From the NCBI RefSeq assembly GCF_028368995.1, contig NZ_JAQNDL010000001.1, forward strand, positions 3,744,001-3,808,000: DNA of 64,000 nucleotides, written 5' to 3'. Below the pieces are notes generated by a model. It was not told where the DNA came from. It ran no database searches and saw only the letters and a list, made by a program, of their open reading frames with translations. The DNA comes from Nannocystis bainbridge. Lineage in GTDB: Bacteria; Myxococcota_A; Polyangia; Nannocystales; Nannocystaceae. Numbering within the stretch: the first letter of the stretch is position 1; the number at the start of each line of letters is the position of its first letter. Below, piece after piece: positions 1,274 to 62,809 of this stretch. The translations under genes and the position numbers were made by a program.

Positions 1274-1564
1274 GCGCGTGCGCGTCGCGTTCAGTCGCGG
1301 CGCGCCTCCTCGCGGCCACGCGAAGCGAGACAGCCGTGCCCGAGCGATGCGAGGGCACGTCGCACTCGGCCGTGCACCGCCTCTCGAGGCCCTCGTATCG
1401 CGCGGGTGTCCGGGTCCGGACACCCGCCCGTCGCCCATTTTAAAACATGTCCCGAAGGACATTTCATTCTCGCCTCACGCGCCCGCGCCTGCGTGCGTGA
1501 GCGCCGGCCCGGCGGCGGGCGCGACGGCTCGCGCGTGGGGGCGCCCCGGTATACTCGCGGCGCA

Positions 1565-2458
1565 GTGGCGGCCTTCGGCTACATCTTGCTGTGCCTGATC
1601 TGGGGCTCGACCTGGCTGGCGATCAAGCTCGGCGTCGACGCTGGCATGCCGCCGCTGCTCGGCGCCTCGCTGCGGTTCGCCATCGCTGCCGCCCTGCTGC
1701 TGCCGGCCGCGCGCGTCCTGGCCCCGGCCGCCTTCCGCGACCGCACCGCCTGGCGGCTCGCGCTCCTGGTCGGCCTGCTCAGCTTCGGCTTCGGCTACGG
1801 CTGCACTTACATCGCCGCGCTGTGGATCCCCTCCGGCCTCGGCTCCTTGACCTTCGGCTTCTTCCCGTTCTGGGTCGCCGTCCTCGCTCACTTCATCCTC
1901 AAGGAGCGGCTCACCCTCGCCAAGCTGCTCGCCATCGGCCTCGGCTTCTCCGGCCTCGCCCTGCTCTCGTACGGCAGCCTGCGCGAGCTCGGGGCCGACA
2001 CCGCGCTCGGCGTCGGCATCGTCACCTGCTCCGTGCTCGTGCAGGGCTTCCCACAGGTCATGATCAAGCGCGACGGCAAGGACGTGCCGACCGTGTTCCT
2101 CAGCGGCGCCGGCATGCTGATCGGCAGCATCGTGCTCGCGCTGGTGGCCGGGCTCGCCGGCGAGTGGTCGCGGCCGTTTCCGTGGACGCCGCCCGTCGTG
2201 CTCTCGGTCGGCTACCTCGCGCTGATGGGCTCGATCGTCACCTTCATGATCTACTACGGCCTGCTGAAGCGGCTGAGCGCCACCCTCATGGCCCTCGTCG
2301 CCCTCATCACCCCGCCGATCGCCGTGGTCCTCGGCAGCATCTACCGCGACGAGAAGCTCGGCGCCCTCACCCTCACCGGCGGGGCGATCGTGCTCGTCGG
2401 CGTCGGCCTGTTCCAGCTCGAGGAGCGCCGCGTCACTCGCCTGCGCCGCGGCGCCTGA
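1565..2458 (+). CDS. EamA/DMT family transporter
   Basis: LIWGSTWLAIK start motif, ~10 hydrophobic helices, two EamA halves; GTG at 1565 preferred over the ORF-track start 1406. Confidence 0.9.
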   Translation: MAAFGYILLCLIWGSTWLAIKLGVDAGMPPLLGASLRFAIAAALLLPAARVLAPAAFRDRTAWRLALLVGLLSFGFGYGCTYIAALWIPSGLGSLTFGFFPFWVAVLAHFILKERLTLAKLLAIGLGFSGLALLSYGSLRELGADTALGVGIVTCSVLVQGFPQVMIKRDGKDVPTVFLSGAGMLIGSIVLALVAGLAGEWSRPFPWTPPVVLSVGYLALMGSIVTFMIYYGLLKRLSATLMALVALITPPIAVVLGSIYRDEKLGALTLTGGAIVLVGVGLFQLEERRVTRLRRGA

Positions 2459-2643
2459 GCGGCGATTCGCGGTCCTTCGCGCCACGGACATCCTCGCCGG
2501 GCCCCGCGCGCGCACCCATTCGCCGACGGCCTGAGCCCATCGTTCGGGCCGCGAATCACCGCCCTGTCGCCGGGCGTCCCCACGTCCCTCGCCGCTCCGT
2601 CCGTCTTCACAGCGCGAGCGCGGACGCGATACATTGGCGGTCT

Positions 2644-3378
2644 ATGGAATCTTCGGCCTATCGCAGCCTCGCCTTTTTGTTCTCGCTCGGGAGCTTGCCG
2701 GTCGCCTGCAACCCCAAGGGCGGTGCCACCACCGACGGCGGCACCGGCGGCACCGACCCGACGACCGGAACCACCGACGGCACCGGCAGCAGCGCGACCG
2801 ACGGCGCGACCACCGAGCCGACCACCGGGCCGACGACCACCGACCCGGGCGGCACCACCGACACCGGCGACACCACCGACACCGGGAGCGCCGACGAAGC
2901 CTGCCAGGCCTATGTCGCTTACCTGCTCAGGTGCGAGCCCGGGCTCGAGCCGATGATGGACGCGTACCTCGCCTACTGCTCGATGACCCGGAGCCGGACC
3001 GAGGCCGTGTACGGTCCGGCCTGCCTCGCCCTGTACGACGCCGCCTTCGTGTGCCTGGGGACCAGCGAGTGCGAGGATCCATCCGCCTGCGAGGCCGAGT
3101 GGGACGCCGCCGACGGCTGCCTGCCGGAGGCCGGCGCGATCTGCGTCGCGTTCGCCGCCAAGGAGGCCGAGTGTTACGGCACGCCTGTGCCCGACTACGC
3201 CGCCGGCGCGTGTCAGGCCTATCTCAACTACCAGGCTTACGCCTACGGCACCGCGTGCGGCACCGCCTACGACGAGTGGTACGCCTGCCTCACCGAGCTG
3301 CCGTGCCTCGAGTTCCAGATGCGCGCCGGCTGTGACGCGCAGCAGGACCAGATCGCCCTCGCCTGCGGCGGCGCGTAG
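2644..3378 (+). CDS. Cys-rich lipoprotein with Thr/Gly linker and two repeated Cys-rich helical domains
   Basis: ATG 2644; lipobox-like LPVAC; TTDGGT-rich linker; duplicated C-x-A...C...YG-x-AC pattern. Confidence 0.75.
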   Translation: MESSAYRSLAFLFSLGSLPVACNPKGGATTDGGTGGTDPTTGTTDGTGSSATDGATTEPTTGPTTTDPGGTTDTGDTTDTGSADEACQAYVAYLLRCEPGLEPMMDAYLAYCSMTRSRTEAVYGPACLALYDAAFVCLGTSECEDPSACEAEWDAADGCLPEAGAICVAFAAKEAECYGTPVPDYAAGACQAYLNYQAYAYGTACGTAYDEWYACLTELPCLEFQMRAGCDAQQDQIALACGGA

Positions 3379-3386
3379 CCGCTGGC

Positions 3387-3456
3387 GGTCCCTGAGGACA
3401 TGTCCATCAGGACATGCCCATCAGGACATGCCTCTCAGACCATGTCCGAAGGTTCC
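3387..3456. repeat. Phased array of 14-bp TGTC-N6-GACA units at a convergent gene junction
   Basis: Units start at 3387, 3401 (perfect), 3415, 3429, 3443; CATG every 14 nt. Confidence 0.85.
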
Positions 3457-8635: not shown

Positions 8636-8672
8636 CCCGAAGCTTCGGCACACGCGAGGTCCGAGACCTACA

Positions 8673-8991
8673 TGTCCCCGAGGACATGTGATTTCCCCCG
8701 CGACCCGCCGGCGCCGACCTCGGCGTGAGGCGCTCTTCAGCGAGATCTCGCCCCGGCCCACGATCGAGAACCGCCGAACTGCTCAGCCCGCTCGTCGCAG
8801 CGAGGACACGTGAGACGCGGTCGCTCGCCTCCCCGACATGTCCCTCGGGACATGTGAACCCGCCAGCGTCCAAAGCTCGGCGGGAGCGCGCCTCCACGGG
8901 TCGTCATTCAGCCGAGCATCGGCTCAGCCAGGTCGCTCGCGCTTCAACATGACCTCCTGGACATGTCCCATGCGACATGTCCTGCCCGATT
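8673..8991. repeat. Cluster of TGTC-N6-GACA palindromes between convergent tetR and oxidoreductase genes
   Basis: Perfect copies at 8673, 8839, 8964; phased units 8950/8964/8978. Confidence 0.85.
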
Positions 8992-9944
8992 CACGGCAGC
9001 AGCACCAGCTTGCCCGTCAGTCGACCCTCGCGGCTGCGGGCCAGCGCTGCCTCGGCCTGCGTCAGCGGCATCGTCGCCTCGATCCGGACCTTCACCGCCC
9101 CGCTCGCCACCGCCGCCACCACCGGCTCCAGCCGCGCCCGCGTCGGCCGGCCGAGCACCAGCTTCGACGTGAACGGCGGTACCAGCCCGTTGAGGGCCTC
9201 GCCCACCGTCTCGCCGGCGATCATCACATGTCGCCCGCCGCGCGCCAGCAGCCGCCGGCAGGCCGTCCCGCTGTAGCCGCCCACGCAGTCGATCACCAGG
9301 TGGAACGGCCCGTGCGCGCGCGCCTCCACCAGCGGATCGCCCTGCGTGTAGTCGATCGCCGTCGCCCCCAGCGAGCGGACCAGCTCGAGGTTTCGCGTCG
9401 AGCACACCCCGACCGCGCTGCCGCCGGCGTGGCGCACGAACTGGACCACCAGCTGCCCGACCCCGCCCGAGGCCCCGAGCACCAGCGCCCGCTGGCCCGC
9501 CTGCAGCCGCCCGACCTCGCCCACGCACATCGACGCCGTCACCCCCGCGACCGGCAGCGCCCCGGCGACGACGATGTCGAAGCCCTCCGGCAGCGTCGCC
9601 ACCTGATCGTCGCGGACCACCACTGTGTCGGCCTGGCTGCCGCGCTGCTTGCGGGCGAAGTTGGTCCCACCGACCACGCGATCGCCGACGCGCACCCGCG
9701 TCCCCGCGCCCACCGCCGTCACCACCCCGGCGAAATCGATCCCCACCACCACCGGCGGCGGCGGCCCGATCAGCCGCGCCGCCAGCCGCAGCGGCCCGCG
9801 CGAGCGCATCTTCCAGTCGACCGGATTGACCCCGATCGCCTGCACCTCGACCACCAGCTCCCCGGCCCGCGGCGTCGGCGTCGGCAACTCCGTCATCACC
9901 AGTGGCTCGCCCTGAGCCCAGCTCCGCTGCGCCATCGCCCGCAT
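8991..9944 (-). CDS. NAD(P)-dependent MDR/quinone oxidoreductase-like alcohol dehydrogenase
   Basis: GVNPVDWK, GIDFAGVV, LVLGASGGVG, GKLVL terminus; start taken as MRAMAQ. Confidence 0.88.
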   Translation of the reverse strand: MRAMAQRSWAQGEPLVMTELPTPTPRAGELVVEVQAIGVNPVDWKMRSRGPLRLAARLIGPPPPVVVGIDFAGVVTAVGAGTRVRVGDRVVGGTNFARKQRGSQADTVVVRDDQVATLPEGFDIVVAGALPVAGVTASMCVGEVGRLQAGQRALVLGASGGVGQLVVQFVRHAGGSAVGVCSTRNLELVRSLGATAIDYTQGDPLVEARAHGPFHLVIDCVGGYSGTACRRLLARGGRHVMIAGETVGEALNGLVPPFTSKLVLGRPTRARLEPVVAAVASGAVKVRIEATMPLTQAEAALARSREGRLTGKLVLLP

Positions 9945-10082
9945 CACCGGACCCCCCGCGACGAAGGGCGAGCGCATGGCGTGCGGCGTGAAGCGGGGCT
10001 GTGCATGCCACGCATGGTAGCCGCGCCCGCCCGCCACGACCAGCGCCCCATCACCTCACCCGGCGTCGGCCCAGGCCGCCAC

Positions 10083-10156
10083 GACATGGCCGATGCGACA
10101 TGTCTATTCGCGCATGACCATTTTAACATGTCCCGAAGGACATATCCATCGACCAC
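10083..10156. repeat. Phased 14-bp TGTC-N6-GACA array
   Basis: Units at 10087, 10101, 10115, 10129 (perfect), 10143. Confidence 0.8.
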
Positions 10157-10165: not shown

Positions 10166-11200
<1,035 letters not shown>

Positions 11201-11896: not shown

Positions 11897-12151
11897 GCTC
11901 GAAAAGGTAGCGCGATCGCGCGAGCCGCCACGCGACGCGTGTGATGCCGCGCTCACGCCCGCCGCGGGCCGCCCGCCGCGCCTCACAGGACATTCCCCAA
12001 AGGACATGTCCTCAAAGCCATCATCGTCTCCATCCCCGCGAGCAGCCGATCGTGACACCTGACCGATCCGCCAGGTCACCCTTCGTGCGCGCTTGCGCGC
12101 CCCGGGCTCGCGCGGCTGCGCGCGTGGCGTCGCCGGGCCGTTCGAGGCAGC

Positions 12152-13090: not shown

Positions 13091-13098
13091 TCCGCGCC

Positions 13099-13391
13099 TG
13101 TCCTTCTGGACAGCAGTCAAATGACTCGGCGAGGTCGCGACCTCGGCCGCGAGCATGTCTCTCCGGACGTGTTCTCTCCGCGTGATGCTCCTGCAGCGCC
13201 GAGCCACGAGGCTGCGCACGGCAATCAACATGTCCCTCAGGACATGTCACATACGCGACGCTCCTGAGGCGCCGGGTCACGAGGCCGTACCCAGGAAACA
13301 TGTCCCTCAGGACATGTCCTCACCGCGACCTCGCAATCTCGAATTGCCGAGACCCCGCCGGGGCGAGGTCTCGGGCCTGTCCCTCGGGACA
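13099..13391. repeat. Cluster of TGTC-N6-GACA palindromes at a convergent junction
   Basis: Perfect copies at 13099, 13231, 13301, 13378; AACATGTCCCTCAGGACATGTC occurs twice. Confidence 0.88.
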
Positions 13392-13393
13392 GC

Positions 13394-21312: not shown

Positions 21313-22809
21313 TCATCGGTGCGACGGTGATTGATCGGCCAGCAGCCCCACTACCCGCTCGAGCAGCACCAATTGTTCCGGCTGCAGCTCGGGCAAGCGG
21401 GCCACCAGCGCCAGCCGCAGCTCCGCGCCTTGCGGCAGCGGCAGGCTGAGGAACCCCCACGCTTGCGAATCGTCGCCGCTCTTGACCGCCGTCGCCGTCC
21501 CGCGGCGCAGCTCGAACCCTGGCACCCCGATGCGCGTCAAGATCGGCGCCAGCGACGGTGACAGCTCGCGCCAGCGCGCCAGCGCCGGGTCCTCCATGTC
21601 CTTGAAGACATGTTCTTTTCGCCTTGTCTCTTCGGACAGGCGATCGAAGTCGGCCAGCAGCTCGATCACCGCGCGCCTGCGGTCGCGCAGCACCAGGCGG
21701 TCGCCGGTGAACGCCGGCAGGTGGCGCAGCAGCTCGTGGTAGCCGAGCAGCCCCGCGACCACCAGCAGCCCCGCGACCGCGCCCGTCAGCGTCCACCAGC
21801 CGCCGACGCCGATCACGTTGAGCAGCGCCAGCCCGGAGAACATCGCCGTCGTCAGCCACAGCACCACCACCCCGCGGCCGTGGGTGAACCCGCGGGCCAG
21901 CAGGCGGTGGTGGATGTGATCGCTGTCGGGCGCGAAGATCGGCTGCCCGCGGGCGGCCCGGCGCGCGATCGACAGCCCCATGTCGAGCAGCGGCAGCGCC
22001 AGCACCAGCAGCGGCAGCGACACATCGATGATCGCCACCCGCTCCGGCACCGGCGCGATCTGCAGCAGCAGCGCCGGCAGCAGGAACCCGAGGAAATAGC
22101 TGCCCGCGTCGCCCATGAACACGCGCGCCGGGTGGCGGTTGTGCACCAAAAACCCGAGCACCCCGCCCAGCGCCGCCGCGCTGACCCACCCGAGCGCCAG
22201 GTCCGGCTGCGGGTGCAGCAGCGTCGCCACCAGCACCACCGCCAGGCCGATCGCCGTGTTGCCGCCCGCGAGCCCGTCGAGCCCGTCGCTGAGGTTGATC
22301 GCGTTGACCGACGCCACCAGGAAGCCGAGCGTGATCACCGGCTCGATCGCCGCCAGCGGCCCGAGCAATTCGGCCAGCGCCGGCCAGCGCAGCCCGACGG
22401 CGAACACCGCCACTCCGGCTGCGAACAATTGCAGCGCCAGCTTCACCCGCGCTCGCGCGCCGACCAGATCGTCGTAGAGCCCGACCAGCCCGCACAGCAG
22501 CGCCCCGAGCAGCGCCCCGCTCAGCGGATTGCGCGACAGCCACTCGTGCACGAGCGACAGCTCGCTGGTACCGACCAGCCCGCGGAACGCCACCGCGCCG
22601 ATCGCCACCATCATCACGAACCCGCCGACCCGCGCGATCTCGCCCTGATGGACCTTGCGCAGGCTGATCTCGCGGTCCGAGCGGCCCAGCGCGCGCCAGC
22701 CCCGGATCGCCCACGGCATCGCCACGGCCACCAGCACGAACGCCACCGCGACCGCGATCCACAGCACCCACGTGGCGGCGCTCACCGGGGCCCCCCGGCG
22801 TTCCCGCAT
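21313..22809 (-). CDS. WecA/MraY-like glycosyltransferase family 4 with C-terminal extension
   Basis: GLYDD, NAINLSDGLDGLA, FMGDAGS, PDSDHIHHRL; start uncertain. Confidence 0.88.
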   Translation of the reverse strand: MRERRGAPVSAATWVLWIAVAVAFVLVAVAMPWAIRGWRALGRSDREISLRKVHQGEIARVGGFVMMVAIGAVAFRGLVGTSELSLVHEWLSRNPLSGALLGALLCGLVGLYDDLVGARARVKLALQLFAAGVAVFAVGLRWPALAELLGPLAAIEPVITLGFLVASVNAINLSDGLDGLAGGNTAIGLAVVLVATLLHPQPDLALGWVSAAALGGVLGFLVHNRHPARVFMGDAGSYFLGFLLPALLLQIAPVPERVAIIDVSLPLLVLALPLLDMGLSIARRAARGQPIFAPDSDHIHHRLLARGFTHGRGVVVLWLTTAMFSGLALLNVIGVGGWWTLTGAVAGLLVVAGLLGYHELLRHLPAFTGDRLVLRDRRRAVIELLADFDRLSEETRRKEHVFKDMEDPALARWRELSPSLAPILTRIGVPGFELRRGTATAVKSGDDSQAWGFLSLPLPQGAELRLALVARLPELQPEQLVLLERVVGLLADQSPSHR

Positions 22810-25337: not shown

Positions 25338-26947
25338 CCAGCTCGCGGCTCTTCCGTCACGGTCCCGGGACGCTCTTCCGCACGGCCTCGCACCTGCCTC
25401 CGCGGCAGATCGCCTACCAGCTGCGGCGGCGCCTCGGCGGCCCCGCGCGCCGGCCCAAGGCCACCAGCCTCGAGGGCGTCACCGGCCTGCTCGCGCGCCT
25501 GCCCGCGCCCACCCCCGAGGGCGAGCCGAGCCCCGATGGCGTCTGTCTCTTGGGACAGCCGCCGCACGACCCGCTGCGCGCCGGCTGGGACCCGCCGGTC
25601 GGCCCGCTCTACCTCTACACCTTGCATTACCACGGCTGGCTGCAGCGGCTCCCGCCCGCGCTGGCCCTGGCGACGATCGATCACTGGATCGTCCACCACC
25701 CCGAGGGCGTCGGCTGGGAGCCGTACCCGACCGCCGTGCGGGCGCTGCACTGGCTCGGCTGGCTCTCGGGACATATCGACGATCTCGACGGCATGACCCG
25801 CCGGCGGCTGCTCGCCTCGCTCGCCGGGCAATTGCGGCACCTCGAGCGCCACCTCGAGCTCCACCTCGACGGCAATCACCTGTGGACCGACCTCGCCGCG
25901 CTGGCCGCCGGCGCGCTGGCCCTCGACGGCCCGCGCGCCCACCTGCTCGCGCCCGCGGTCGCCCGCTTCGCCGCCGTCACCGGCGAGCAGCTCGCGCTCG
26001 ACGGCTTCCACCGCGAGCGCACGCCCTCCTACCATTGCCTGCTCGCCGAGCAATTGGCCGGCGTCGTCGCGCTTGGGCCCGAGCGCGTCGACCCACGCGC
26101 CGGCCGGGCGCTGCGCGACAACCTCGCGCGCATGCTCGCCGTACTGCCGGCCTTCGCCCACCCCGACGGCGACGTCGCCCTGTTCGGCGACAGCCAGCGC
26201 GGCCTCGTCACCCCCGCGGCGCTGGCGACTCGCTGCGGCATCAGCCTGTCCCAGGGGACAGATCACAACGCCCCCGCCTCCGGCCTGTTCCGCCGCGCCT
26301 GGGGCCCGTGGACCTTGCTGTGGAACGCCGGCGGCCTCGGCATGCCGCAGCAGGTCGGCCACATCCACGCCGACTGGCTCGGCTACGAGCTCTCGCTCGG
26401 CGGCGAGCGGATCGTCGTCGACGCCGGCGTCGGCACCTACGAGGTCGGCCCCGAGCGGGCCTACGCCCGCAGCACCCGCGCCCACAACACCGTCACCGTC
26501 GGCCCCGGCGACGCCGACCAACATGAACTTTGGGCCAGCCACCGGATCGGCGGCCGCGGCGAGCTCGTCGACCTGTCCTTCGGGACATCCGAGGTCTCGG
26601 CCGGCGTACGCGGCTTCCGCTCGCGGGCGGTGCACCACCGGCGGCTGGCGTGGGACGGCCGCTCCCTGCGCTGTAGCGACCGCGTCCTGCCCGATCACGG
26701 CGAACCTGTCCCTGCGACCATGCGGATCCACCTCCCGCAGACCTGTGTCGTCGCGGTCGACGGCCCGGTCGTCCATGGGCGCACCCCCGGCGGCCGCGGC
26801 TTCGCCGTGCGCGGCCCCGCCGACCAGCGCTGGCAGGCCACCGCCGCGGCGGGCTGGACTGCCATGTCGCGCCCGGCCCCGCGCCACTGCCTGGCCCTGC
26901 CGGTGGGTCCCGGCGGCCTCGAGATCGCCTTCGAGCTCGAGACCTGA
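25334..26947 (+). CDS. Heparinase II/III family protein
   Basis: ATGA overlap with wecC stop; WEPYPT, LDGNHL, GHIHAD, VDAGVGTY, RSTRAHNTV. Confidence 0.85.
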   Translation: MTSSRLFRHGPGTLFRTASHLPPRQIAYQLRRRLGGPARRPKATSLEGVTGLLARLPAPTPEGEPSPDGVCLLGQPPHDPLRAGWDPPVGPLYLYTLHYHGWLQRLPPALALATIDHWIVHHPEGVGWEPYPTAVRALHWLGWLSGHIDDLDGMTRRRLLASLAGQLRHLERHLELHLDGNHLWTDLAALAAGALALDGPRAHLLAPAVARFAAVTGEQLALDGFHRERTPSYHCLLAEQLAGVVALGPERVDPRAGRALRDNLARMLAVLPAFAHPDGDVALFGDSQRGLVTPAALATRCGISLSQGTDHNAPASGLFRRAWGPWTLLWNAGGLGMPQQVGHIHADWLGYELSLGGERIVVDAGVGTYEVGPERAYARSTRAHNTVTVGPGDADQHELWASHRIGGRGELVDLSFGTSEVSAGVRGFRSRAVHHRRLAWDGRSLRCSDRVLPDHGEPVPATMRIHLPQTCVVAVDGPVVHGRTPGGRGFAVRGPADQRWQATAAAGWTAMSRPAPRHCLALPVGPGGLEIAFELET

Positions 26948-27602: not shown

Positions 27603-27914
27603 GCACGAGGTGTTCCGCAAAGACATCTCGTGCTGTCTCTTCGGACAGCTTCGCGCGCCGCGCCTGCCGCGATAATGAGATGTCCGCAGCGACATCTTCC
27701 GCCGCGGCCGGCGGACCTCCGGCGCGTCTTCCGGCCCACGCACGGGATGTCCTTGAGGACATCTCCGGCCCGCGCACGAAATGTCCTCACGGACCTTCCG
27801 GCCCACGCACGAGATGTCCTTGAGGACATCTCGTGCTGTCTTTCAGGACAGCATCGCGCCGCGCCCGCCTCACGCTAGATGTCGCAGGGACATCTCGTGC
27901 TGTCTTTCGGGGAG
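27603..27914. repeat. Composite REP/BIME-like array built around the TGTC-N6-GACA motif
   Basis: GACATCTCGTGCTGTCT x3; ~33-bp tandem CCGGCCCRCGCACGRRATGTCC x3; five perfect motif copies. Confidence 0.85.
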
Positions 27915-33448: not shown

Positions 33449-33509
33449 CGAGGATATGTCTTTCGGGACATATCCTCGGGGCGCGCGATTCGACCTGTCC
33501 CGAAGGACA
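33449..33509. repeat. Two TGTC-N6-GACA sites, one extended into a 12-bp inverted repeat
   Basis: CGAGGATATGTC-TTTCGG-GACATATCCTCG; second perfect copy at 33496. Confidence 0.8.
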
Positions 33510-42462: not shown

Positions 42463-42644
42463 CAGCCACGTGTGCCACACACGGGCGAGCCGCTCAAACG
42501 CAAACTGCGGGCTCGCCAGCGTGCCCTCGCGTGCACACGGGAAGTCTGCCCGCCTGCATGTGCGGCCGCTTGCGCGCTCGCGCCCGTGCGCTCGCCTCGC
42601 AACTCCGCGTCTGCGGGTCGGCGACGCCACGCGTCCGAGCGGCC

Positions 42645-42736
42645 TGTCTTTCGAGACAGCTGTTGCTCGAGACAGCTCCGATCGGCGCAGGAGCCGTCGG
42701 GGACGCGGTGCGACACGCCATCTGTCTCTCGGGACA
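42645..42736. repeat. TGTC-N6-GACA sites
   Basis: Perfect at 42645 and 42723; one-mismatch at 42661. Confidence 0.75.
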
Positions 42737-43871: not shown

Positions 43872-46800
43872 CTACGGCGCGTCCGGGGTGGTGTCGGCCT
43901 GGGCCGTGCGCTTGGTCGGCGGCGGGTCCGGCTCGACCTTCGGCGCCGGGGTCTTCTGCCCCTCGGCGCCGGTGCGGCCGAAGGTGCGGCGCCAGAACAG
44001 GTCGAGGCCGCCGACCGCGGCGTCGCCGAAGAACGTCTCCACCGACCACTGCGGCTTGAAGCGGTACTCGAACGAGCCCTGGATGCGGTTGTTCCGGATC
44101 GGCGCGTTGTGATGGTAGGTCGTCTCGGCGTAGATCTTCTTCGTCAGGTGCTTGCCGACGCTCAGCACCGGCTGCGTGACGTCGTCGGCGAAGCCGAACT
44201 TGATGCGGTCGATGCCGAGCTTCTGATCGGCGAAGCGCGACAGCGTCGGGTTGCTGAAGTTGACGAGCAGGCCGGCGGCGCTCGCCTGGGTCTTCTTCGG
44301 GTCGCTCTCCTGAGTGTCGGCGCTGCCGGTCAGCAGCAGGGCGAAGATCTGGCCCTCGGTCAGCGACGGGCGCGAGCGCAGCTTGAGCGCGGGCCGGCTG
44401 AGGCGGCCGCGGATCGCCACGTTGACCTCGGCCTGCGGCGTGGTCGTGTCGGCGGTGAGGTCGAGGTACGGGTCGATCGTCGAGCCGTCCTCCGGCAAGA
44501 ACACGCGGCCCTGGTCGATGGTGAAGCGGTTGCCGAGCAGCTCGAAGCGGCCGCGGTCGGCCCGGAAGCCGCCAGTGACCCCGGCCTCCTCGCCCTTGCG
44601 GTGCAGCGCCAGCGCGCCGCTCCAGCTCATGTCCATCGTCGGGCCCTTGATGTGCACCGGGGCCTTGAGCCGCACCGCGAGGTCGAACTGGCTGCTCTGG
44701 ACGTCGGCCGTCGGCGGCTTTTTGGTCGGCGGAGCCGTCGCCTCCTCGGCCTGCACCACCGGCGTCTCCTTGTCGCTCAAGGCGCCTGCCTGGCTGCCGA
44801 GCGCGGCCTGCAGCTCGGGCAGCGGCCCGCTGACGATCGTGATGTTGTCGTTCTCGGGCACCGGGTCGGGCGCGCGCGTGGTGAGGTCGGAGACCCAGAT
44901 CTCGGCGCCGTCGACGTCGATCTTGACCCCGAGCCCGGCCGCGCTGCGCTTCACGTCGGCGCTCACGTGCGTGTCGATGATCATCTGCGGCAGGCCGGGG
45001 CGGACCACCGGGAACTTGCGCAGGTCGAGCTGAGCGTCGGCGTCGACCCTGCCGCCGCTGGCGAACGTCACCTTGCCGTCAGCCTTGACCCGGCCCTCGC
45101 CGCTGGTCGCGGTGAGGCTGGTCAGCTTGACCTCGGGCCCGTCGGCGAGGATCTCGAAGTTGAGGTCGCGGAACCGCTGCTGCAGGGCCACCACGGTCAC
45201 GCCGCCCTTCTGCAGGCGGGCCGAGCCTCGCAGCTTGGGCTTGCCGATGACGCCGCCCGCGGTGATCTCGCTCGAGAAGAAGCCGGTGAAGTCGTAGATG
45301 GCCTCGGGGAAGAAGCCGCTGAGGTAGCGCAGGTCGGTCGCCTCGGCCTTGAGCTCGCCACGCATCGGGGTGTCGGTCAGCTTGGCCTGCTTGGCCCGCA
45401 GCTTCGGGATCGAGGCGGTGGTGTCGGCCGAGAACTCGAGCCAGCCCCGCTTCTTGTCGCGCTGGCCGAAGCTGCCGCGCACCGTCTGCTTGGCGTCGCC
45501 CACGTCGAGCTGGATCTTGAGCGGCTGGCCGCCGAGCACCTTGTGGCCGATCTCTCCGAGCACCTGGGCCTCGGCGTGCACGGTCTTGGCGTCGAGCTCG
45601 GCCGTGGCGTGGATGTTGAGGGCCACCACCGCCTGCTGCGGCAGCGGGCTGAACGGCTCGAGCGCGTCGTGGTCGAGGTTCTTGACGTCGAGCTTGGCCT
45701 TGGCGGGCCGCTCGGTCGCCCACGCGAACTCGCCCGACGCGAGGTCGATGTCGAGCGGCACGCGCCCGCCCAGCTCGATGGTGGTGATCTTGCCGAGCCG
45801 ACCGTGAGCGCCGACCTTGGCCAGGCCGTCGCGGTACTCGACGTCGGCCCGCAGCGCGCCGACCGGCTGGCCCTTGAACGCCAGCTTGTCGGCACGCACG
45901 GCCCCGACCAACTTGGGGTGGCGACCGGCGCCGTCGAAGGTCACGCCGCCGGTGATCCGGCCGGCGAGGTTGAGCCCGAGCAGCGGCTCGAGCGGCGCCA
46001 GCTCGAGCTCGCGAAGGTCGAGCATCAGCGCGTACCAGCCGTCGCGACGCCAGCGCACGCCAGAGGCGTCGAGCGCGAGCGGGGCCAGGCCGCGCAGCTG
46101 GAACTGCCCGACCTGCCCGCCGCCGCCCGAGATGTCGACGGCGACCCCGCCGTCGCGCATGGTCGCGACCAGCGACAGCGCGCCGAACTCGATCCGGCGG
46201 TGCATCAGGCGCTCGCCGTGCAGCTCGGCCTGCAGCTCCGGCTTGGTCGCCGGGCCAGTCATCTCGGCCTTCAGCGTCAGCTTGCCGCCGGCGTCGTGGC
46301 CGGGCGCGAGCGCGTCGAGCTGGTCAGCCACGTCGATGTCGTCGAGCTGGACCAGGACCCGGTGCTCGCGCTCGCGGTGCCAGGCGAACTTGCCGCGCAG
46401 CGGGTCGAGCTCGATCGGCACCTGCACGTCGACCTGGGCCCGACCGCCGCTGCGGTGGAGATCGACCTTGCCCTGCAGCCAGTCGCCGCGGTGCGTGACG
46501 CTGACCGCGACGTCGCCGACCGGCGCGCCCGAGATCGTCAGCCCCTTCGCGCGCCACTCGGTCACCACCCGCGGGGTCGCCAGCGGGCCGTCTGTGCCGT
46601 TGGCCTCGAACAGGACCATGCCGTCGAGCCGGCCGGTCAGCTCCGGCTGCTTGAGCCACGGCCGCAGCCGGTCGAGCCGGACCTCCTGGGCCTGCAGCTC
46701 GAGCTTGGTGTACGTATGTCCGATCGAGCCTGTCCTTAGCGACATGTTCACGTGGACAGGCGCCTGCGCGCGCAGCTCGAGCTTGCGCGCCAGCGGCCCG

Positions 46801-48890
46801 CGCAGATCGACGTCGACCGCGGCCTGGCCGTCGGCGAGCCGGGCGGCGACGTCGAGGTCGCCGAAGGTGTTGCCGCGCAGGCCGGCGCGGGCGATCGTCA
46901 CGTCCGCCACCAGCGACGGCGCCTCGGGCCGCCCGTGGACCCGCACGTGCGCGCTCGCCAGGCCGGCCGGGCGCAGCTTCGGCAGCAGCGGCCGCAGCCG
47001 GGCCAGCGCCAGCCCGGTCAGGTCGACATGCACGTCGCTCGGCCCGTCGGCGTCGAGGGTCCCGCCGGCCGCCAGGCGCCCGCCGGCGATCTTCAGCGCC
47101 AGGTCCTCCTCGATGCGCAGGCGCGAGCCCGACAGCACCGCCCGCGCCGGCCGCTCGAGCTCGGCGTGGAAGCCGGCCATCTCGGCCGTCAGCGCCCGCA
47201 GCTCCGCGCCGATCTCCTGACCTGTCCGTACAGACAGGTCGAGCTCCACCCGCGCGTCCGGCCCGAGCGCCCCGGCCCGCAGCCGCGCGTGCAGCGGCGG
47301 CAGCGAGGCCGGCACCGGCGGGGCCACCGGCCCGGGCGGCAGCTTGTCCGCGTCGAGCCGCACCTCGCCGCGATCGATCTGCACCGAGCCGGCCTTAAGG
47401 CCCGCGAGCGCCACCGCGACTGTCCCTTCGGACATGCCCCGAAGGACATCCACGTCGACGCGCGCCTGCTCGAGCGCGACCCCGCCGACGCCGACGCGGC
47501 GCAGCTCGAGCGCGCCGGCGCAGCGCAGCTCCGGCCCGCTGCAGGCCCCGCGGCCCGAGACCGTGCCGGTGATGTCCGGCAGCCTGGCGAACTGGCGGCC
47601 GACCGCGACCGGGCGGGCCACGTCGACCACCGCCAGGCGCCAGTCGATCTGCCGCAGCGCGCCGCGGATGGCGACCACGTCGACCAGGGCGCCGACCCCG
47701 GCCGCGTCGAGCGCTGCCGCGAGGGACAGGCTCTTGCTCGACGGATCGATCACACCATCGACGTCGAGGGCGACGCCGCCGAGGGGCGCGCACTCGGGGC
47801 AGCGCAGCCCGCCGGCCAGCGCCAGGCGCTTGCTCGGCATCTGTCGCGCGTGCAGCTCGAGCGTCGGCCGCACGCGTCCGAGCCGCGCCTGGGTCCACGG
47901 CGCCAGGTCGGCGTCGACCGCCAGGGTGATGTCGGCCTCCGGCGTCCCGCGCCACGCGCCCGCGCCTGTCAGCTTCAGCGCCAGGTTCGGCGCCAGCGCC
48001 AGCCGGACTTCGGCCGCCATGTCCTCGGGCACACCTTCGGCCGCGACCGAAAGCTCGACCGTGCCTGCCGGCGCCTTCAACTTCTCGACCGTGCCTGCGG
48101 GCAGGTACTCGGCCAGCAGCCCGACCGCCGCGCGGGCCTCGAGGTCGACCAGCATCCGCCACGCCCGCACATCGAGCTGCGCCTGCGGGATCTCGATCGC
48201 CGCCGCGTCGGCCACGATCCGCAGCCCCTCGATCTGCGCCACCGGCGAGCCCCAGCGGGCCTTCAGCACCAGCTCTTCGATCTCGCGGTTGCCCAGCAGG
48301 CGCCCGTGGGCCCGCACGATCTCCGCCTCGGCCGCGCGCCCGACCCCGCGGGCCCGCAGGTCGACGTCGAGCCCCTCGACGATCGGCGCGCCGTCGGCGA
48401 AATAGACCGCGCCGTCGTGCAGGTGCAGCGCCGCGGCGATGCCGAGCGGCAGGTCCGGACCCGGCGGAAGGGACATGTCCTTTGGGACATCATCACCGGG
48501 CGGCGCGATGTCGGCGAAGCTGCCGCCGGGCCCGGGCAGGTAGACGCGCAGGCTCTCGAGCGTCAGCGCGTCGACGGCGAGGTCGCGGCCGAGCAGCGCG
48601 CGCGGCGACCAGTCGAGCGAGAGCGCGTCGGCGGTGATCAGCGCGCGACCTTCGCGGTCGGAGAGCGTCACGCCGCGCAGGGTGAACGAGCCCAGCAGTG
48701 AGCCCTCGACCTCCGCGATCGCCACGCTGCCGGCGATCTTGCCGTTGTAGATCGGCAGGCCGACCCGCAGCGCGAGCCGCAGACCCGCGTTCGTGGTCAA
48801 GATCAGGACGACCGCGGACACCACCACCACGAGGACCAGCGCGAGCCCTTTCAGCGTGGTGCGTGCGATCTTTGCGATCCTCGTCGTCAT
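43872..48890 (-). CDS. tamB: Translocation/assembly module TamB-like protein
   Basis: 1672 aa, N-terminal anchor, C-terminal DUF490-like region (DPYLDL, SRPSL..IFALLLTG, LSVGKHL); adjacent to an Omp85 gene. Confidence 0.85.
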   Translation of the reverse strand: MTTRIAKIARTTLKGLALVLVVVVSAVVLILTTNAGLRLALRVGLPIYNGKIAGSVAIAEVEGSLLGSFTLRGVTLSDREGRALITADALSLDWSPRALLGRDLAVDALTLESLRVYLPGPGGSFADIAPPGDDVPKDMSLPPGPDLPLGIAAALHLHDGAVYFADGAPIVEGLDVDLRARGVGRAAEAEIVRAHGRLLGNREIEELVLKARWGSPVAQIEGLRIVADAAAIEIPQAQLDVRAWRMLVDLEARAAVGLLAEYLPAGTVEKLKAPAGTVELSVAAEGVPEDMAAEVRLALAPNLALKLTGAGAWRGTPEADITLAVDADLAPWTQARLGRVRPTLELHARQMPSKRLALAGGLRCPECAPLGGVALDVDGVIDPSSKSLSLAAALDAAGVGALVDVVAIRGALRQIDWRLAVVDVARPVAVGRQFARLPDITGTVSGRGACSGPELRCAGALELRRVGVGGVALEQARVDVDVLRGMSEGTVAVALAGLKAGSVQIDRGEVRLDADKLPPGPVAPPVPASLPPLHARLRAGALGPDARVELDLSVRTGQEIGAELRALTAEMAGFHAELERPARAVLSGSRLRIEEDLALKIAGGRLAAGGTLDADGPSDVHVDLTGLALARLRPLLPKLRPAGLASAHVRVHGRPEAPSLVADVTIARAGLRGNTFGDLDVAARLADGQAAVDVDLRGPLARKLELRAQAPVHVNMSLRTGSIGHTYTKLELQAQEVRLDRLRPWLKQPELTGRLDGMVLFEANGTDGPLATPRVVTEWRAKGLTISGAPVGDVAVSVTHRGDWLQGKVDLHRSGGRAQVDVQVPIELDPLRGKFAWHREREHRVLVQLDDIDVADQLDALAPGHDAGGKLTLKAEMTGPATKPELQAELHGERLMHRRIEFGALSLVATMRDGGVAVDISGGGGQVGQFQLRGLAPLALDASGVRWRRDGWYALMLDLRELELAPLEPLLGLNLAGRITGGVTFDGAGRHPKLVGAVRADKLAFKGQPVGALRADVEYRDGLAKVGAHGRLGKITTIELGGRVPLDIDLASGEFAWATERPAKAKLDVKNLDHDALEPFSPLPQQAVVALNIHATAELDAKTVHAEAQVLGEIGHKVLGGQPLKIQLDVGDAKQTVRGSFGQRDKKRGWLEFSADTTASIPKLRAKQAKLTDTPMRGELKAEATDLRYLSGFFPEAIYDFTGFFSSEITAGGVIGKPKLRGSARLQKGGVTVVALQQRFRDLNFEILADGPEVKLTSLTATSGEGRVKADGKVTFASGGRVDADAQLDLRKFPVVRPGLPQMIIDTHVSADVKRSAAGLGVKIDVDGAEIWVSDLTTRAPDPVPENDNITIVSGPLPELQAALGSQAGALSDKETPVVQAEEATAPPTKKPPTADVQSSQFDLAVRLKAPVHIKGPTMDMSWSGALALHRKGEEAGVTGGFRADRGRFELLGNRFTIDQGRVFLPEDGSTIDPYLDLTADTTTPQAEVNVAIRGRLSRPALKLRSRPSLTEGQIFALLLTGSADTQESDPKKTQASAAGLLVNFSNPTLSRFADQKLGIDRIKFGFADDVTQPVLSVGKHLTKKIYAETTYHHNAPIRNNRIQGSFEYRFKPQWSVETFFGDAAVGGLDLFWRRTFGRTGAEGQKTPAPKVEPDPPPTKRTAQADTTPDAP

Positions 48891-53578: not shown

Positions 53579-53597
53579 ACCTCTTTTTTAAAGAGAG

Positions 53598-53657
53598 GAC
53601 ATGTTCATGAGGACATGTCCCCGAGGGCATGCTCTCGAGAACATGTCCTGAGGGTCT
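53598..53657. repeat. Phased 14-bp array at a convergent junction
   Basis: Units at 53602, 53616, 53630, 53644. Confidence 0.8.
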
Positions 53658-53778
53658 AGATCTGGCTGACGCCCGCGGCCATCGGCGCCGCGGAGCGACA
53701 GGCCCTGCTCGAGCGCCCCGCGTCGCTCGCCGCACCGCGACGCGCCCGCGCGAGGGCGCGTCGCTGCGGCACACTCAC

Positions 53779-55396: not shown

Positions 55397-56152
55397 ATGT
55401 CGTCCGCTGCCGCCTCCTCGAGCCTCCCGCGCGGCCTCCAGCTGGCCGGCCGTGGCCTGCAGATCGCGCTCGCCAGCCCCGAGGTCCGCCGCGCCTATCT
55501 CCGCCTGGCGGTGGTGCTGGTCATCCTCGCCGTCGTGCTCACGGCGCTGCTCGGCGGCCTGCTGTGGTGGCTGGTGCCTGTCTCTGGGGACATGTCCTGG
55601 ACGACATGGCTCGGGCGCTGGGCGCTGCGGATCGGCGGCGGCCTGCTGGCGCTGGTGGCCGCGCCGATGCTGTCCTTCTTCGTCGTCAGCATCGGCCTCC
55701 CGTTCCTGGCCGACGGCGTGTTCATGGCCGGCATGCGCGCGACCGACCCGGCGCTGGCGGCCCGGCTCGAGCGGCCGGCCGAGCTCGGGTTCGTGGCCGC
55801 GACCGTCGGCAGCATCCGCCGCGCGGTCTATTTCCTCGGCGTCACCGCGGTCCTGTTCGGGCTCACGCTGGTCCCGTTCGTCGGGCCGCTGCTCGGGCCG
55901 CCGCTGCAGCTGTGGTACGCGGCGCGGACCTTCACCTGGGAGCTGCTCGACCCGTACTTCGAGCGGACCGGCCAGACCTACGCGCAACAGCAGACGGTCG
56001 TGCGGGCCCACCGCGCGACCCTCGCCGGCTTTGGTCTGCCGTGGGTGGCGGTGATGGCCCTCCCATTCGTGGGCCCTCTGCTCTTTGGTCTCGCGCAGGC
56101 CGCCGTGGCGACGGTCGTCGCCGACGAGCTCGAAGCGGCTACAGCGCGCTGA
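55397..56152 (+). CDS. EI24/CysZ-like membrane protein
   Basis: Hydrophobic helices, LVPFVG, WELLDPY, AGFG...LPFVG. Confidence 0.75.
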   Translation: MSSAAASSSLPRGLQLAGRGLQIALASPEVRRAYLRLAVVLVILAVVLTALLGGLLWWLVPVSGDMSWTTWLGRWALRIGGGLLALVAAPMLSFFVVSIGLPFLADGVFMAGMRATDPALAARLERPAELGFVAATVGSIRRAVYFLGVTAVLFGLTLVPFVGPLLGPPLQLWYAARTFTWELLDPYFERTGQTYAQQQTVVRAHRATLAGFGLPWVAVMALPFVGPLLFGLAQAAVATVVADELEAATAR

Positions 56153-56434
56153 TTCTGTCCGCGGGGACAATCGGACAATCGTCCGGGCGACCGTCCGCAA
56201 CCTGTCGGAAAGGCCAGGTGGTCGGCACAGCTCGCTGGGGGCCCGAGGTCCGAGATCGGGACGCCACTCGAACCGCGTTCGTCAGGCCCCTGAGGGGCGT
56301 GGACACCGCCCCCCAGGCTGACTGCTGAGGCAGGGCTTTCCAGCCCTGTGCACACGTCGTAGGATATCAACCTCGATGTCGGCCCAAAAGGTATCCTGAT
56401 GGCCCCTTCTCGTCAAATTGACGCTTCCAGGGTT

Positions 56435-61412: not shown

Positions 61413-61414
61413 CC

Positions 61415-61456
61415 TGTCCCTCCGGACATGTTCTCAAGCACCTGGCCCCGAGGACA
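61415..61456. repeat. Three phased 14-bp units filling the gyrA-hemL spacer
   Basis: Units 61415 (perfect), 61429, 61443; the last contains the GAGG before the hemL ATG. Confidence 0.75.
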
Positions 61457-61459
61457 GCG

Positions 61460-62809
61460 ATGAGCACCACGCCCGAGTTCTGGACCCAGATCCCCGGTGA
61501 CGGCCGGGCCGGCGCCAACAGCCGCGCGCTCTTCAACGCCGCCCAGTTCGTCATCCCGGGCGGCGTCAACAGCCCGGTGCGCGCGTTCAAGGCGGTCGGC
61601 GGCGACCCGCCGTTCATCCGCGCCGCCCGCGGGCCCTACCTGCTGACGGAGGACGGCGTCACTCTGGTCGACTACGTCGGCTCCTGGGGCCCGGCGATCC
61701 TCGGCCACGCCCACCCCGAGGTGGTCGACGCCGTCTGCCGCGCCGCCCGCGACGGCCTGTCCTTCGGGGCATGTTCGGCCGGCGAGGTCGAGTTCGCCGA
61801 GCTGCTGTGCCGCGTGGTCCCGGCGCTCAAGGACGGCATGGTCCGCCTGGTCTCGTCGGGCACCGAGGCGACGATGAGCGCCCTGCGGCTGGCCCGCGGC
61901 TTCACCGGCCGCAGCAAGATCGTCAAGATCGACGGCGGCTACCACGGCCACGCCGACTTCCTGCTGGTGGCCGCCGGCTCGGGCGCCGCCACCCTCGGCA
62001 TCCCCGGCTCCGAGGGCGTGCCCGCGGCCACGGTCGCCGACACCCTCACCGTCCCGTTCAACAGCGTCGTCGCCGTCGAGCAGGTGCTCGAGCAGCACCG
62101 CGGCGACATCGCCGCCATCATCGTCGAGCCCGTGCCCGGCAACATGGGCTGCGTGCCGCCCGACCCCGGCTACCTGCAGGCGCTGCGCGACGCCTGCACC
62201 CGCGAGGGCGTGGTCCTGGTGTTCGACGAGGTGATGACGGGCTTCCGCGTCGCCCTCGGCGGCGCCCAGCAGCGCTACGGCGTCACCCCCGACCTCGTCT
62301 GCCTCGGCAAGATCGTCGGCGGCGGCATGCCGGTCGGCGCCTACGGCGGTCGCCGCGACATCATGCAGCACGTCGCCCCGCTGGGCCCGGTCTACCAGGC
62401 GGGCACCCTCAGCGGGAACCCGGTCGCGGTCGCGGCCGGCCTGGCGACCCTGCAGATCTTGACCCGCGACGACCCCTACGCCGCCCTCGAGGCCACCTCC
62501 GCCGCCCTGGCCGCGGGCCTGTCCGCCCGCGCCGCCAAGGCCGGCGTGCCGGTGGTGATGAACCGCGTCGGCGCCATGTTCACCGGCTTCTTCCGCAGCG
62601 GAGAGGTCCACGACTACGACGACGCCAAGGCCAGCGACCTCGGCGCCTTCGCCGAATTCCACCGCGAGATGCTGACCTGCGGGGTCTACCTGGCGCCCTC
62701 GCAATTCGAGGCCAGCTTTGTCTCGCTCGCCCACGACGCCGCGGCCATCGAGCACACCCTCGCCGCCGCCGAGGCCGCCTTCGCCGCGGTCGCCCGTCGC
62801 TACGGCTAG
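61460..62809 (+). CDS. hemL: Glutamate-1-semialdehyde 2,1-aminomutase
   Basis: [49 protein letters not shown]. Confidence 0.96.

Follow-up and report, generated by a model that had tools for sequence, protein, structure and literature searches.

A short palindromic element behind the genes of Nannocystis and its possible part in forming transcript 3' ends

The palindrome in the window and in the genome

The window analysed here is a stretch of 64,000 nucleotides from Nannocystis bainbridge (NCBI RefSeq assembly GCF_028368995.1, contig NZ_JAQNDL010000001.1, positions 3,744,001 to 3,808,000), which carries, among others, genes for Dus, a LigD primase-polymerase, a TamB-like protein and gyrA. 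Between and inside these genes lies a palindrome, TGTC-N6-GACA, whose excess at a spacing of exactly six bases is strong and genus-wide. The element follows transcription-unit ends and avoids promoter-side DNA, selection holds the copies inside genes, and imperfect copies near gene ends show the strand bias expected of an RNA hairpin. A stem-loop acting at transcript 3' ends is therefore the explanation that is weighed most fully below.

A sequence-only reading of this stretch had listed 33 perfect copies of TGTC-N6-GACA by eye, and our search recovered all of them where they had been placed, 33 being the exact count in the window. In 100 dinucleotide-preserving shuffles of the window the mean was 0.74 (sd 0.88, largest 4), and none of the shuffles reached 33. 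As had been described, the first base of the spacer is C or T at all 33 sites and the last is G or A at 29 of them; the exceptions are sites 8964, 27681, 46731 and 55593. The source genome (G000; 11.05 Mb, 71.5% G+C, five contigs) was then scanned with the same arms at each spacing k; since the coding background stays the same, this amounts to a codon-aware control. The scan counted 3663 sites at k=6, compared with 29–155 at each of the other spacings between 0 and 14, among them 78 at k=5 and 120 at k=7. The excess is present separately in predicted genes (1339 sites, against 15–118 at other k from 0 to 13) and between genes (2324, against 12–37), and therefore codon usage is not the explanation. 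The earlier estimate of about one site per 2 kb is true of the window, whereas the genome as a whole has one per 3.0 kb. By its spacing the palindrome differs from the sites of CRP, NifA and MrpC and from parS, in agreement with what had been noted.

In a maximal-order Markov comparison the hexamer with the greatest excess in the genome is ACATGT (8468 occurrences, 5262 expected), the top heptamers include TGTCTCT and TGTCCGA, and the top octamer is TGTCCCGA; the half-site GGACAT alone reaches only 1.28 times its expectation. A blind search for dyads rediscovered TGTC-N6-GACA in the source genome (159) and in a relative, G007 (189), against a median of 4 for other spacings. Applied to 400 kb of G011, a sister genus (61% G+C; C18:1-400000), it turned up nothing as extreme: the leading dyad there is TGCA-N2-TGCA, with 68 occurrences against a median of 6, which is a different and milder excess.

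The sites lie on all five contigs with a mean of 16.6 and a variance of 59.5 per 50 kb, so that they are clustered, and they are scarcer in the 50-kb bins where G+C is lower. They follow 8.9% of the genes with atypical codon usage, compared with 20–28% of the others. Particularly poor in the motif are G000 C1:1100000-1300000 and 13 further 50-kb bins, with 1–5 sites per 50 kb at a G+C fraction of 0.68–0.71. These bins may hold recently acquired DNA or very long biosynthetic genes.

A 14-base unit repeated in register

The repeat unit is 14 bases long and consists of the palindrome GGACATGTCC and four free bases, often arranged head-to-tail, and TGTCC-N4-GGACA is the junction between two such units. 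The decamer GGACATGTCC occurs in 956 copies, as against 0–26 for eight comparison decamers, and the zero-gap reverse arrangement of the arms, GACATGTC, in 2237 copies genome-wide. The spacing from one site to the next has peaks at exactly 14 (144 cases), 28 (88), 42 (61) and 56 (36). Even where the decamer seems solitary (661 of the 956 copies), degenerate partners are still present in the 14-base register. Moreover, Tandem Repeats Finder reported 939 arrays of period 14, against 235 of period 13 and 183 of period 16. Arrays of period 14, 28 or 42 number 1093, and 635 of these have an RRCATGYY core; the latter are mostly of 2–6 units, one with 16, and 93% of them are intergenic.

The consensus around a site is RCA-TGTCC-YNNR-GGACA-TGY. 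Among the 3663 sites there are 854 different six-base spacers, and positions 6 and 9 favour a pyrimidine and a purine, respectively, independently of pairing. The palindrome extends by at least 5 pairs past the arms at 227 sites, a modest increase over the 79 expected from shuffled partners. No longer element carrying the motif at both ends, such as a miniature inverted-repeat transposable element or an insertion sequence, was indicated, since site-to-site distances show no such peaks up to 4 kb. Spacing peaks at 48 and its multiples were traced to repeats at G000 C2:2322913-2326033. This 3.1-kb 'gap' of the gene caller contains 48-base coding repeats, several with a perfect site, and is probably a missed gene on the − strand reading roughly ADVPRD...

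Distribution among relatives

The comparison set comprised 31 relatives, namely 11 genomes of the genus and 20 others. TGTCC-N4-GGACA is found in all 11 Nannocystis-genus genomes, with 114 to 2090 sites, the reversed control having 1–6. In two other genera of the family the counts are 87 and 161, and in the other 18 relatives they are 0–7. In a scan of one genome for each of about 185,000 species, two units in register were found in 78 stretches, of which 64 belong to Nannocystis, nine to one metagenome-assembled genome (MAG) of the Nannocystaceae and two to one MAG of the Myxococcales, the remaining three being strays. Among viral contigs, 66 stretches match a 15-letter form of the pattern; nearly all are single matches, about the number expected by chance on a rough estimate. 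One IMG/VR contig (L230:6880-8120) is dense in GTCCTC/GAGGAC and contains six chance-like matches to TGTC-N6-GACA, its repeat being unlike the 14-base unit.

The presence of the sites on all five contigs and in all 11 genomes, beside unrelated neighbouring genes, bears out the proposal of the sequence-only reading that this is a chromosome-wide signal, here also genus-wide, rather than a regulon. The 20 window proteins that were scanned are of unrelated housekeeping types, and no cognate protein is evident in the window, as that reading had also remarked. In addition, 20 proteins flanking ten array-dense gaps were compared in search of a cognate gene by neighbourhood, a route that was given up; these proteins (GNAT, thioredoxin, CrcB, SMR, AhpC, esterase, GGT, LysR and others, or no match) include no family that recurs.

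The element seems undescribed, as we found no earlier description of it in Rfam or in the literature searched. The Rfam covariance models gave no match at the gathering score, and a single unrelated chance match when E up to 1 was allowed. The literature searches returned neither the motif nor REP-type (repetitive extragenic palindromic) repeats described for Nannocystis or Sorangium, and the matches listed for the word GGACATGTCC were p53 papers only. That word is indeed a p53 half-site, but the p53 domain PF00870 has no match in the genome, and a reader of the p53 type was rejected.

Placement relative to genes

Genes were predicted with our own codon-usage gene caller, which gave 8113 genes (84% coding) and is most reliable in its stop codons. 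Perfect sites between genes number 2324 out of 3663, and the other 1339 (37%) lie inside 971 genes. Per kb, convergent gaps carry 3.09 sites, tandem gaps about 1.2, divergent gaps 0.45 and genes 0.144. If up to one arm mismatch is allowed, a site is present in 738 of 1080 convergent gaps (68%; gaps of 45–400 nt were counted for this class), 791 of 2591 tandem gaps (31%) and 174 of 1029 divergent gaps (17%), while the spacing controls occupy only 10% (k=5) and 3% (k=7) of the convergent gaps. Perfect sites are present in 3–9% of the tandem gaps shorter than 100 nt, which are likely operon-internal, and in 0–1% of the divergent gaps shorter than 150 nt. The occupancy of convergent gaps saturates near 50%, from 35% at 45–70 nt to 52% at 250–400 nt, and therefore the sites follow gene ends and not free space.

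The distance from the stop codon shows the same placement. A total of 593 sites begin 0–19 nt after a stop, with a jump at +2. When densities are normalised by the number of gaps reaching each distance, convergent gaps have 5–7 sites per 1000 positions over the 70 nt that follow the stop. In tandem gaps the figure is 2.7–3.8 beside the upstream stop, compared with 0.64 beside the downstream start, and the poorest class is the 50 nt before starts in divergent gaps, with 0.03–0.18.

Canonical terminators are scarce in this genome. T-runs occur in 11% of 3' regions and A-runs in 9%, and T-runs are found in 13.7% of site-bearing and 10.3% of site-free 3' regions. Three terminator-like sites lie in the first 20 kb of the window, where shuffles give 4.6, and the motif itself accounts for one of them. 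There is no U-tract 3' of the hairpin: the sense positions after the site favour T, G, T and C and are then mixed, which mirrors the 5' side.

Conservation in close relatives

Four close relatives are syntenic with the window, with 84–94% identity across the greater part of the main aligned blocks. The 12 intragenic sites of the window keep all eight arm bases in 43 of 48 comparisons, and their spacers change freely. The 21 intergenic window sites gave 84 comparisons, in which the arms are kept in 21, degenerate in 12 and unaligned in 51. Intergenic sequence near the sites turns over fast by large insertions and deletions, and a site often persists directly after the stop, sometimes amid unrelated flanks. 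For example, a site lies 9–25 nt downstream of the LigD stop in three of the four relatives whose gap was read, with non-homologous flanks. Furthermore, an orthologous intergenic array of five units (reference gap 92279-92353) keeps its cores and differs in all of its four-base spacers.

Selection on the intragenic copies was examined at synonymous bases in about 280 kb aligned to each of two relatives. Third-codon A/T bases in the arms are unchanged in 53 of 55 cases in one relative and in 52 of 55 in the other, compared with baselines of 0.380 and 0.367 for third-codon A/T elsewhere (p about 1e-20), and the GACATGTC junctions keep their synonymous A/T bases in 18 of 18 and 15 of 18 cases. 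Since the spacer and the flanking codons are conserved less than the gene average, the motif lies in loosely constrained regions of the proteins and yet is itself held. In genes with many sites, these lie in proline/aspartate-rich low-complexity linkers reading PVPxD[IM]S or DLSPGTS, as at G000 C3:585192-587040, C3:712626-717846 and C2:1216679-1218890, and several of the proteins are Ser/Thr-kinase-like.

Strand signature of imperfect copies

A single transition in one arm leaves either a G-U pair or an A-C mismatch in the sense RNA, and the two are mirror images of each other in duplex DNA. Single-arm transitions of both types were therefore counted relative to the direction of the preceding gene, the sites in convergent gaps being oriented by the nearer stop. 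In tandem gaps the G-U type prevails over the A-C type by 135 to 80 at 0–40 nt from the stop (p 2e-4) and by 100 to 49 at 40–80 nt (p 4e-5), and the two types balance farther out (77 vs 82 at 80–200 nt, 60 vs 62 beyond 200 nt). In convergent gaps the counts are 264 vs 150 at 0–40 nt (p 2e-8), 74 vs 61 at 40–80 nt (p 0.3) and 38 vs 38 at 80–200 nt. Plain word counts on the same strands show no preference for the G-U type, and therefore a general mutational skew is unlikely as the cause of the strand bias.

Predicted folding gives a similar picture. Within 0–40 nt of the stop, the sense strand folds at −15.27 and the antisense strand at −14.11 kcal/mol in convergent gaps (p 1e-14), and at −13.41 and −12.64 kcal/mol in tandem gaps (p 6e-4); the advantage of the sense strand changes sign beyond 80 nt. 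Individual example hairpins fold at −6.3 to −20.1 kcal/mol, which is a plausible strength.

Compensated double changes in the arms also concentrate at the true spacing. TGCC..GGCA occurs 136 times at k=6, against 12 at k=5 and 8 at k=7; TGTT..AACA 40 times, against 1 and 0; TGGC..GCCA 46 times, against 12 and 10; and TGAC..GTCA 17 times, against 6 and 4. For the inner pairs 3/12 and 4/11 such doubles are 1.5–3.6 times as frequent as expected from independent arms. Early covariation odds ratios were weak and confounded by G+C heterogeneity, and they were not relied on.

These results indicate that a hairpin of the sense strand matters near gene ends; this is most simply an RNA, though the non-template DNA strand reads alike. 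They also indicate that the foot of the hairpin is read as sequence and that the length of its gap is fixed. The sequence-only reading had offered three candidates, namely a site for a dimeric nucleoid-organising or roadblock protein, an element like HIP1 or an uptake sequence, and a modification target, all of which share a strand-neutral DNA signal. That common feature does not fit the strand bias of imperfect copies near gene ends, and the compensated changes of the inner pairs and the placement at the ends of transcription units also speak against it.

A candidate stem-loop at transcript ends and its rivals

The explanation that we put forward is a REP-like, genus-restricted family of 3'-end RNA stem-loops that lacks a REP-associated tyrosine transposase (RAYT) and would be read by a putative sequence-specific factor; we give it about an even chance of being right. 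The palindrome would then be the DNA image of a short stem-loop transcribed at gene ends, (CA)UGUCC-loop-GGACA(UG), with 5 to 8 base pairs, which would mark the 3' ends of transcription units. Because palindromic arms give the same hairpin from either strand, one copy could serve both genes of a convergent pair. Such a stem-loop may act as a terminator that has no U-tract and needs a helper factor, or it may stop 3' exonucleases and thereby define the mature 3' end, as REPs do in E. coli. The near-invariance of the outer UG...CA pairs and the strict six-base gap with free sequence point to a sequence-specific reader. Intragenic copies could perhaps be latent terminators that act when translation uncouples from transcription. 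We infer, from the pattern of substitutions and placement, that the RNA form would be the active one, that its effect would be termination or stabilisation, and that a dedicated reader would exist.

Several observations weigh against a stem-loop at transcript ends. When all 1187 tandem-gap sites are folded in 50-nt windows, the antisense strand is slightly the more stable one (−17.89 vs −17.47 kcal/mol, p 0.0015), and sites farther than 80 nt from a stop remain abundant and have no RNA signature. The closing pair 5/10 has no preference for G-U (41 vs 47 and 21 vs 31 in tandem gaps; over all tandem-gap sites, T-G 151 and C-A 157). At pair 3/12 the mismatched singles (234 and 428) far exceed the 136 compensated doubles, so that pairing is not strict, and the outer pairs 1/14 and 2/13 hardly vary and never covary. 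As 1339 of the 3663 sites are intragenic and conserved, a terminator model needs an extra assumption there. A fixed gap with free sequence is equally expected from a dimeric DNA-binding protein, and the strong conservation of the loop-less GACATGTC junction is what such a protein would produce. Besides, the gene ends rest on a codon-usage caller and not on curated annotation.

One rival is a duplex DNA site for a genus-specific dimeric protein, with half-sites TGTC(C) that lie one helical turn apart. The protein, bound to single sites or along head-to-tail arrays of 14-base units where transcription units end, would work as a roadblock terminator, an insulator or an organiser of the nucleoid or its topology. 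The absolutely fixed spacing combined with a free gap is just what it predicts, as are arms conserved as sequence and not merely as pairs, the Y/R preference at positions 6 and 9 regardless of pairing, the exact 14-base register of the arrays, the conserved intragenic copies and the sites far from stops that show no strand bias; the GACATGTC junction, moreover, cannot fold on itself and yet is equally conserved. A reader of duplex DNA, however, predicts neither the sense G-U bias and sense folding advantage near stops nor the excess of compensated doubles, a roadblock within 971 genes would be costly, and no candidate protein was found, the ten densest-array gaps examined being flanked by unrelated genes. 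We consider this rival unlikely, though with an appreciable chance. The fast intergenic turnover would also fit a selfish, REP-like mobile hairpin spread by a putative enzyme acting on single-stranded DNA, which would lie after genes since insertions elsewhere are harmful and whose cellular role would be secondary. Thousands of genus-specific copies in clusters and arrays behind 3' ends recall REPs and bacterial interspersed mosaic elements (BIMEs) as PMC2817692 describes them. The 51 unaligned among 84 comparisons of window sites, the sites amid non-homologous flanks in close strains and the scarcity of sites with genes of atypical codon usage agree with mobility, and a conserved foot below a covarying upper stem resembles the hairpins recognised by HUH transposases. 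On the other hand, the Y1 (RAYT/IS200) transposase domain is found in none of the 11 genus genomes, arrays do not flank any gene recurrently, the GT(A/G)G head is missing, and no larger spacing peak marks a longer element. Differences between orthologous, aligned sites are point substitutions and not clean insertions, and the arm bases of intragenic sites and the cores of arrays are under strong purifying selection. In our view mobility as the primary explanation is decidedly unlikely.

The genus-wide recurrence of one word both in and between genes, with synonymous bases that would only seem 'conserved', could also arise if an uptake-signal-like word were kept frequent by biased uptake and recombination within the genus, the copies after genes being tolerated or recruited as hairpins. 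Inverted uptake words after genes occur in Neisseria and Haemophilus, which counts in favour of such a word, as does the depletion in genes of atypical codon usage and in regions of lower G+C. But the Nannocystis unit is a fixed-gap dyad and not a single asymmetric word, the half-site alone being hardly enriched; the sites are clustered and not even, their occupancy follows gene ends rather than tolerant space, and a drive acting on duplex DNA does not predict a strand bias near stops. An uptake word is thus very improbable. The last rival is a recognition sequence of a DNA-modifying or restriction-modification enzyme, perhaps with CATG at its centre; both CATG and ACATGT, the top hexamer, are palindromes of the type such enzymes use. 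PF02086, the D12-class adenine methyltransferase family, occurs in 25 of the 31 relatives, genera that lack the motif included, and therefore this class is not co-distributed with the motif; a modification target, moreover, predicts neither the placement at 3' ends nor the strand bias, and we regard it as scarcely credible.

Comparison with known systems

REPs and BIMEs, as PMC2817692 describes them, are short, lineage-specific palindromic units in hundreds to thousands of copies that form regularly spaced groups after genes and have been associated with the termination of transcription, with chromosome organisation and with protein binding. In that account a RAYT gene, which encodes a transposase of the IS200/IS605 Y1 type, is flanked by two inverted REPs, and a conserved GT(A/G)G head adjoins the REP palindrome (PMC2817692). 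The Nannocystis element is like the REPs and BIMEs of Enterobacteria, Pseudomonas and Stenotrophomonas in its high copy number and in its clusters behind 3' ends. Complementary changes, by which REP palindromes are preserved, are seen at its inner stem pairs, with none at the outer pairs and with mismatched singles outnumbering the doubles. Unlike them, its unit is only 14 bases long and fully symmetric with a strict four-base loop, its flanks are RCA before and TGY after the site, 37% of its perfect copies are intragenic and conserved, unlike extragenic REPs, and its outer stem never covaries. Membership in the RAYT/REP group was tried and rejected: the domain PF01797, present in 8 of the 31 relatives overall, is absent from all 11 genus genomes, and REP is for that reason used here as a comparison of working only.

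DNA uptake sequences (DUS) of Neisseria and uptake signal sequences (USS) of Pasteurellaceae are single asymmetric words of 9–12 bases. They share with the present element a short genus-wide word at about one per 1–3 kb, in and between genes, and inverted pairs after genes that can form hairpins; they differ from it in that the Nannocystis unit is a clustered dyad of fixed gap placed by gene ends. HIP1 (GCGATCGC) of cyanobacteria is a contiguous octamer and likewise a hyper-abundant palindrome that also occurs in coding sequence. HIP1 is not known to have a fixed free gap, 14-base arrays, 3'-end placement or an assigned function. As in intrinsic or bidirectional terminators, the hairpin lies a few to some tens of bases after the stop, and one symmetric hairpin could serve convergent genes; unlike in intrinsic terminators, the stem sequence is identical genome-wide and there is no T-rich tail. 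A dimeric operator of the CRP/FNR-like or another helix-turn-helix type shares the fixed spacing of the half-sites and the free centre, but not the sense bias up to 80 nt from stops, the compensated doubles or a promoter side that is the poorest in sites.

In metazoa, the histone mRNA 3' stem-loop has a conserved sequence with a four-base loop near the stop, and the stem-loop-binding protein (SLBP) makes the mRNA 3' end. The likeness to a short conserved stem-loop shortly after the stop is an analogy of working and not of descent, as the histone stem-loop is eukaryotic and confined to one gene class and one strand. We know of no SLBP-like reader in Nannocystis. A bolder form of our proposal, in which the 14-base element would be the site of a dedicated, genus-specific 3'-end factor, a counterpart in working of histone SLBP or of terminators of the mTERF type, is on balance doubtful.

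Transcript ending in very G+C-rich bacteria that have no U-tract terminators is poorly understood. If the bolder form of our proposal is true, Nannocystis, at 72% G+C, would end or trim its transcripts by a sequence-specific, factor-dependent and bidirectional system that replaces U-tract terminators, and the conserved intragenic copies would be latent stops that act when translation fails. Thousands of copies of fixed sequence, situated where terminators sit and under measurable selection, make the question testable with a 14-base probe. The element would also be an apparent REP-like family with no RAYT, in a lineage outside those in which PMC2817692 found RAYTs, and repeats of this kind with conserved coding copies bear on how such repeats arise and persist. 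In addition, the motif could mark native as against recently acquired DNA in these genomes rich in natural-product genes, and it is a candidate for a portable terminator or insulator part in myxobacterial engineering.

Individual sites in the window

The coordinates of the sites and arrays are collected in Table 1.

Table 1. Copies of the element in the window, with their surroundings and their state in the four close relatives
Feature	Coordinates	Location and structure	State in relatives
Site 1448	1448..1461	Tandem gap 1274-1564, 174 nt after the stop of a + strand gene (ends 1273)	Arms kept in 4/4
Array	3395..3432	Convergent gap 3379-3434 by an AcrB-type gene; 2.7 units, period 14, 95% matches; perfect site 3401-3414	Degenerate variants at the same place in 3, unaligned in 1
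Site 8673	8673..8686	Convergent gap 8636-8990, 37 nt after a TetR-family stop	Gap unaligned in 4/4
Site 8839	8839..8852	Second site of convergent gap 8636-8990	
Site 8964	8964..8977	Third site of gap 8636-8990; 13 nt after the stop of the − strand alcohol-dehydrogenase gene (8991-10037)	
Site 10129	10129..10142	23 nt after the stop of the − strand Dus gene (10166-11200)	
Site 10851	10851..10864	Inside the Dus coding sequence	Arms kept in 4/4, spacer varies
Degenerate pair	11987..12017	Divergent gap 11897-12178; two units (AGGACATGTCCCCAA, period 15)	Perfect site here in G007
Site 13099	13099..13112	Convergent gap 13091-13393, 8 nt after the LigD primase-polymerase stop	
Site 13231	13231..13244	Convergent gap 13091-13393; ACA/TGT consensus flanks; RNA stem of 8 pairs, −10.3 kcal/mol	
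Site 13301	13301..13314	Gap 13091-13393, 70 nt from site 13231	
Site 13378	13378..13391	2 nt after the stop of the − strand gene 13394-14938	Position kept in 4/4
Sites 21597 and 21625	21597..21638	Inside a glycosyl transferase family 4 gene	Each kept in 3/4
Site 25544	25544..25557	Inside the heparinase II/III-like gene 25334-26947	Kept in 4/4
Site 26247	26247..26260	Inside the heparinase II/III-like gene	Kept in 4/4
Site 26574	26574..26587	Inside the heparinase II/III-like gene	Kept in 4/4
Cluster of sites 27634, 27681, 27748, 27815 and 27837	27634..27850	Tandem gap 27580-28092 after a nitroreductase gene	Unaligned in 4/4; 2 sites in G007 by pairwise alignment of the gap
Site 33457	33457..33470	Tandem gap 33436-33641, 21 nt after the stop at 33435; 11-pair palindrome	Kept in 3/3 aligning
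Site 33496	33496..33509	Gap 33436-33641, 60 nt after the stop	Kept in 3/3 aligning
Sites 42645 and 42723	42645..42736	Gap 42481-43405 between two − strand genes	42723 kept in 3/3 aligned; 42645 degenerate in 3/3
Site 46731	46731..46744	Inside the TamB-like gene 43872-48890	Arms kept in 3/4, spacer differs at 3-4 of 6 bases
Site 47223	47223..47236	Inside the TamB-like gene	Kept in 4/4
Site 47421	47421..47434	Inside the TamB-like gene	Kept in 2/4
Site 48476	48476..48489	Inside the TamB-like gene	Kept in 4/4
Degenerate array	53595..53648	Convergent gap 53579-53778; 3.9 units, consensus GAGGACATGTCCAC, no perfect TGTC-N6-GACA	
Sites 55579 and 55593	55579..55606	Abutting, sharing a GACATGTC junction; inside a CysZ/EI24-like gene	Both kept in 4/4
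Site 56156	56156..56169	3 nt after the CysZ/EI24-like stop (ends 56152)	Kept in 2/4
Site 61415	61415..61428	2 nt after the gyrA stop (61412), in the 47-nt gap before an aminotransferase gene	Variant with one to three mismatches at the same place in 3

Two of these sites have flanks in common. On the − strand, site 1448 is followed by TGTTTTAAAATGG, a flank that it shares with site 10129, and the longer shared segments (1434-1461 and 10116-10142) read on that strand as the identical hairpin TGTCCTTCGGGACA and then TGTT(T)TAAAATGG. Site 10129 fills the spacer of a promoter-like match on the − strand (TGGATA, 17 nt, TAAAAT) that points at the alcohol-dehydrogenase gene, and sites of this type may form a sub-family in which the element overlaps a promoter. 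In the cluster after the nitroreductase gene there is also a 34-base tandem repeat (27730-27832, 3.1 copies) with a 12-pair version of the hairpin in its unit, which is absent from the aligned parts of the four close relatives, and the segment 27808-27835 folds as a stem of 12 pairs at −20.1 kcal/mol.

After site 13378, between it and the remainder of the gap, there is a separate G+C-rich hairpin (GAGACC..GGTCTC, 13340-13375), which is found with small changes in four of five strains; ordinary hairpins thus coexist with the element. Finally, the adjacent + strand genes at 35745-37997 and 38157-40451 are paralogues, with BLAST cross-hits of about 82% identity in all four relatives.

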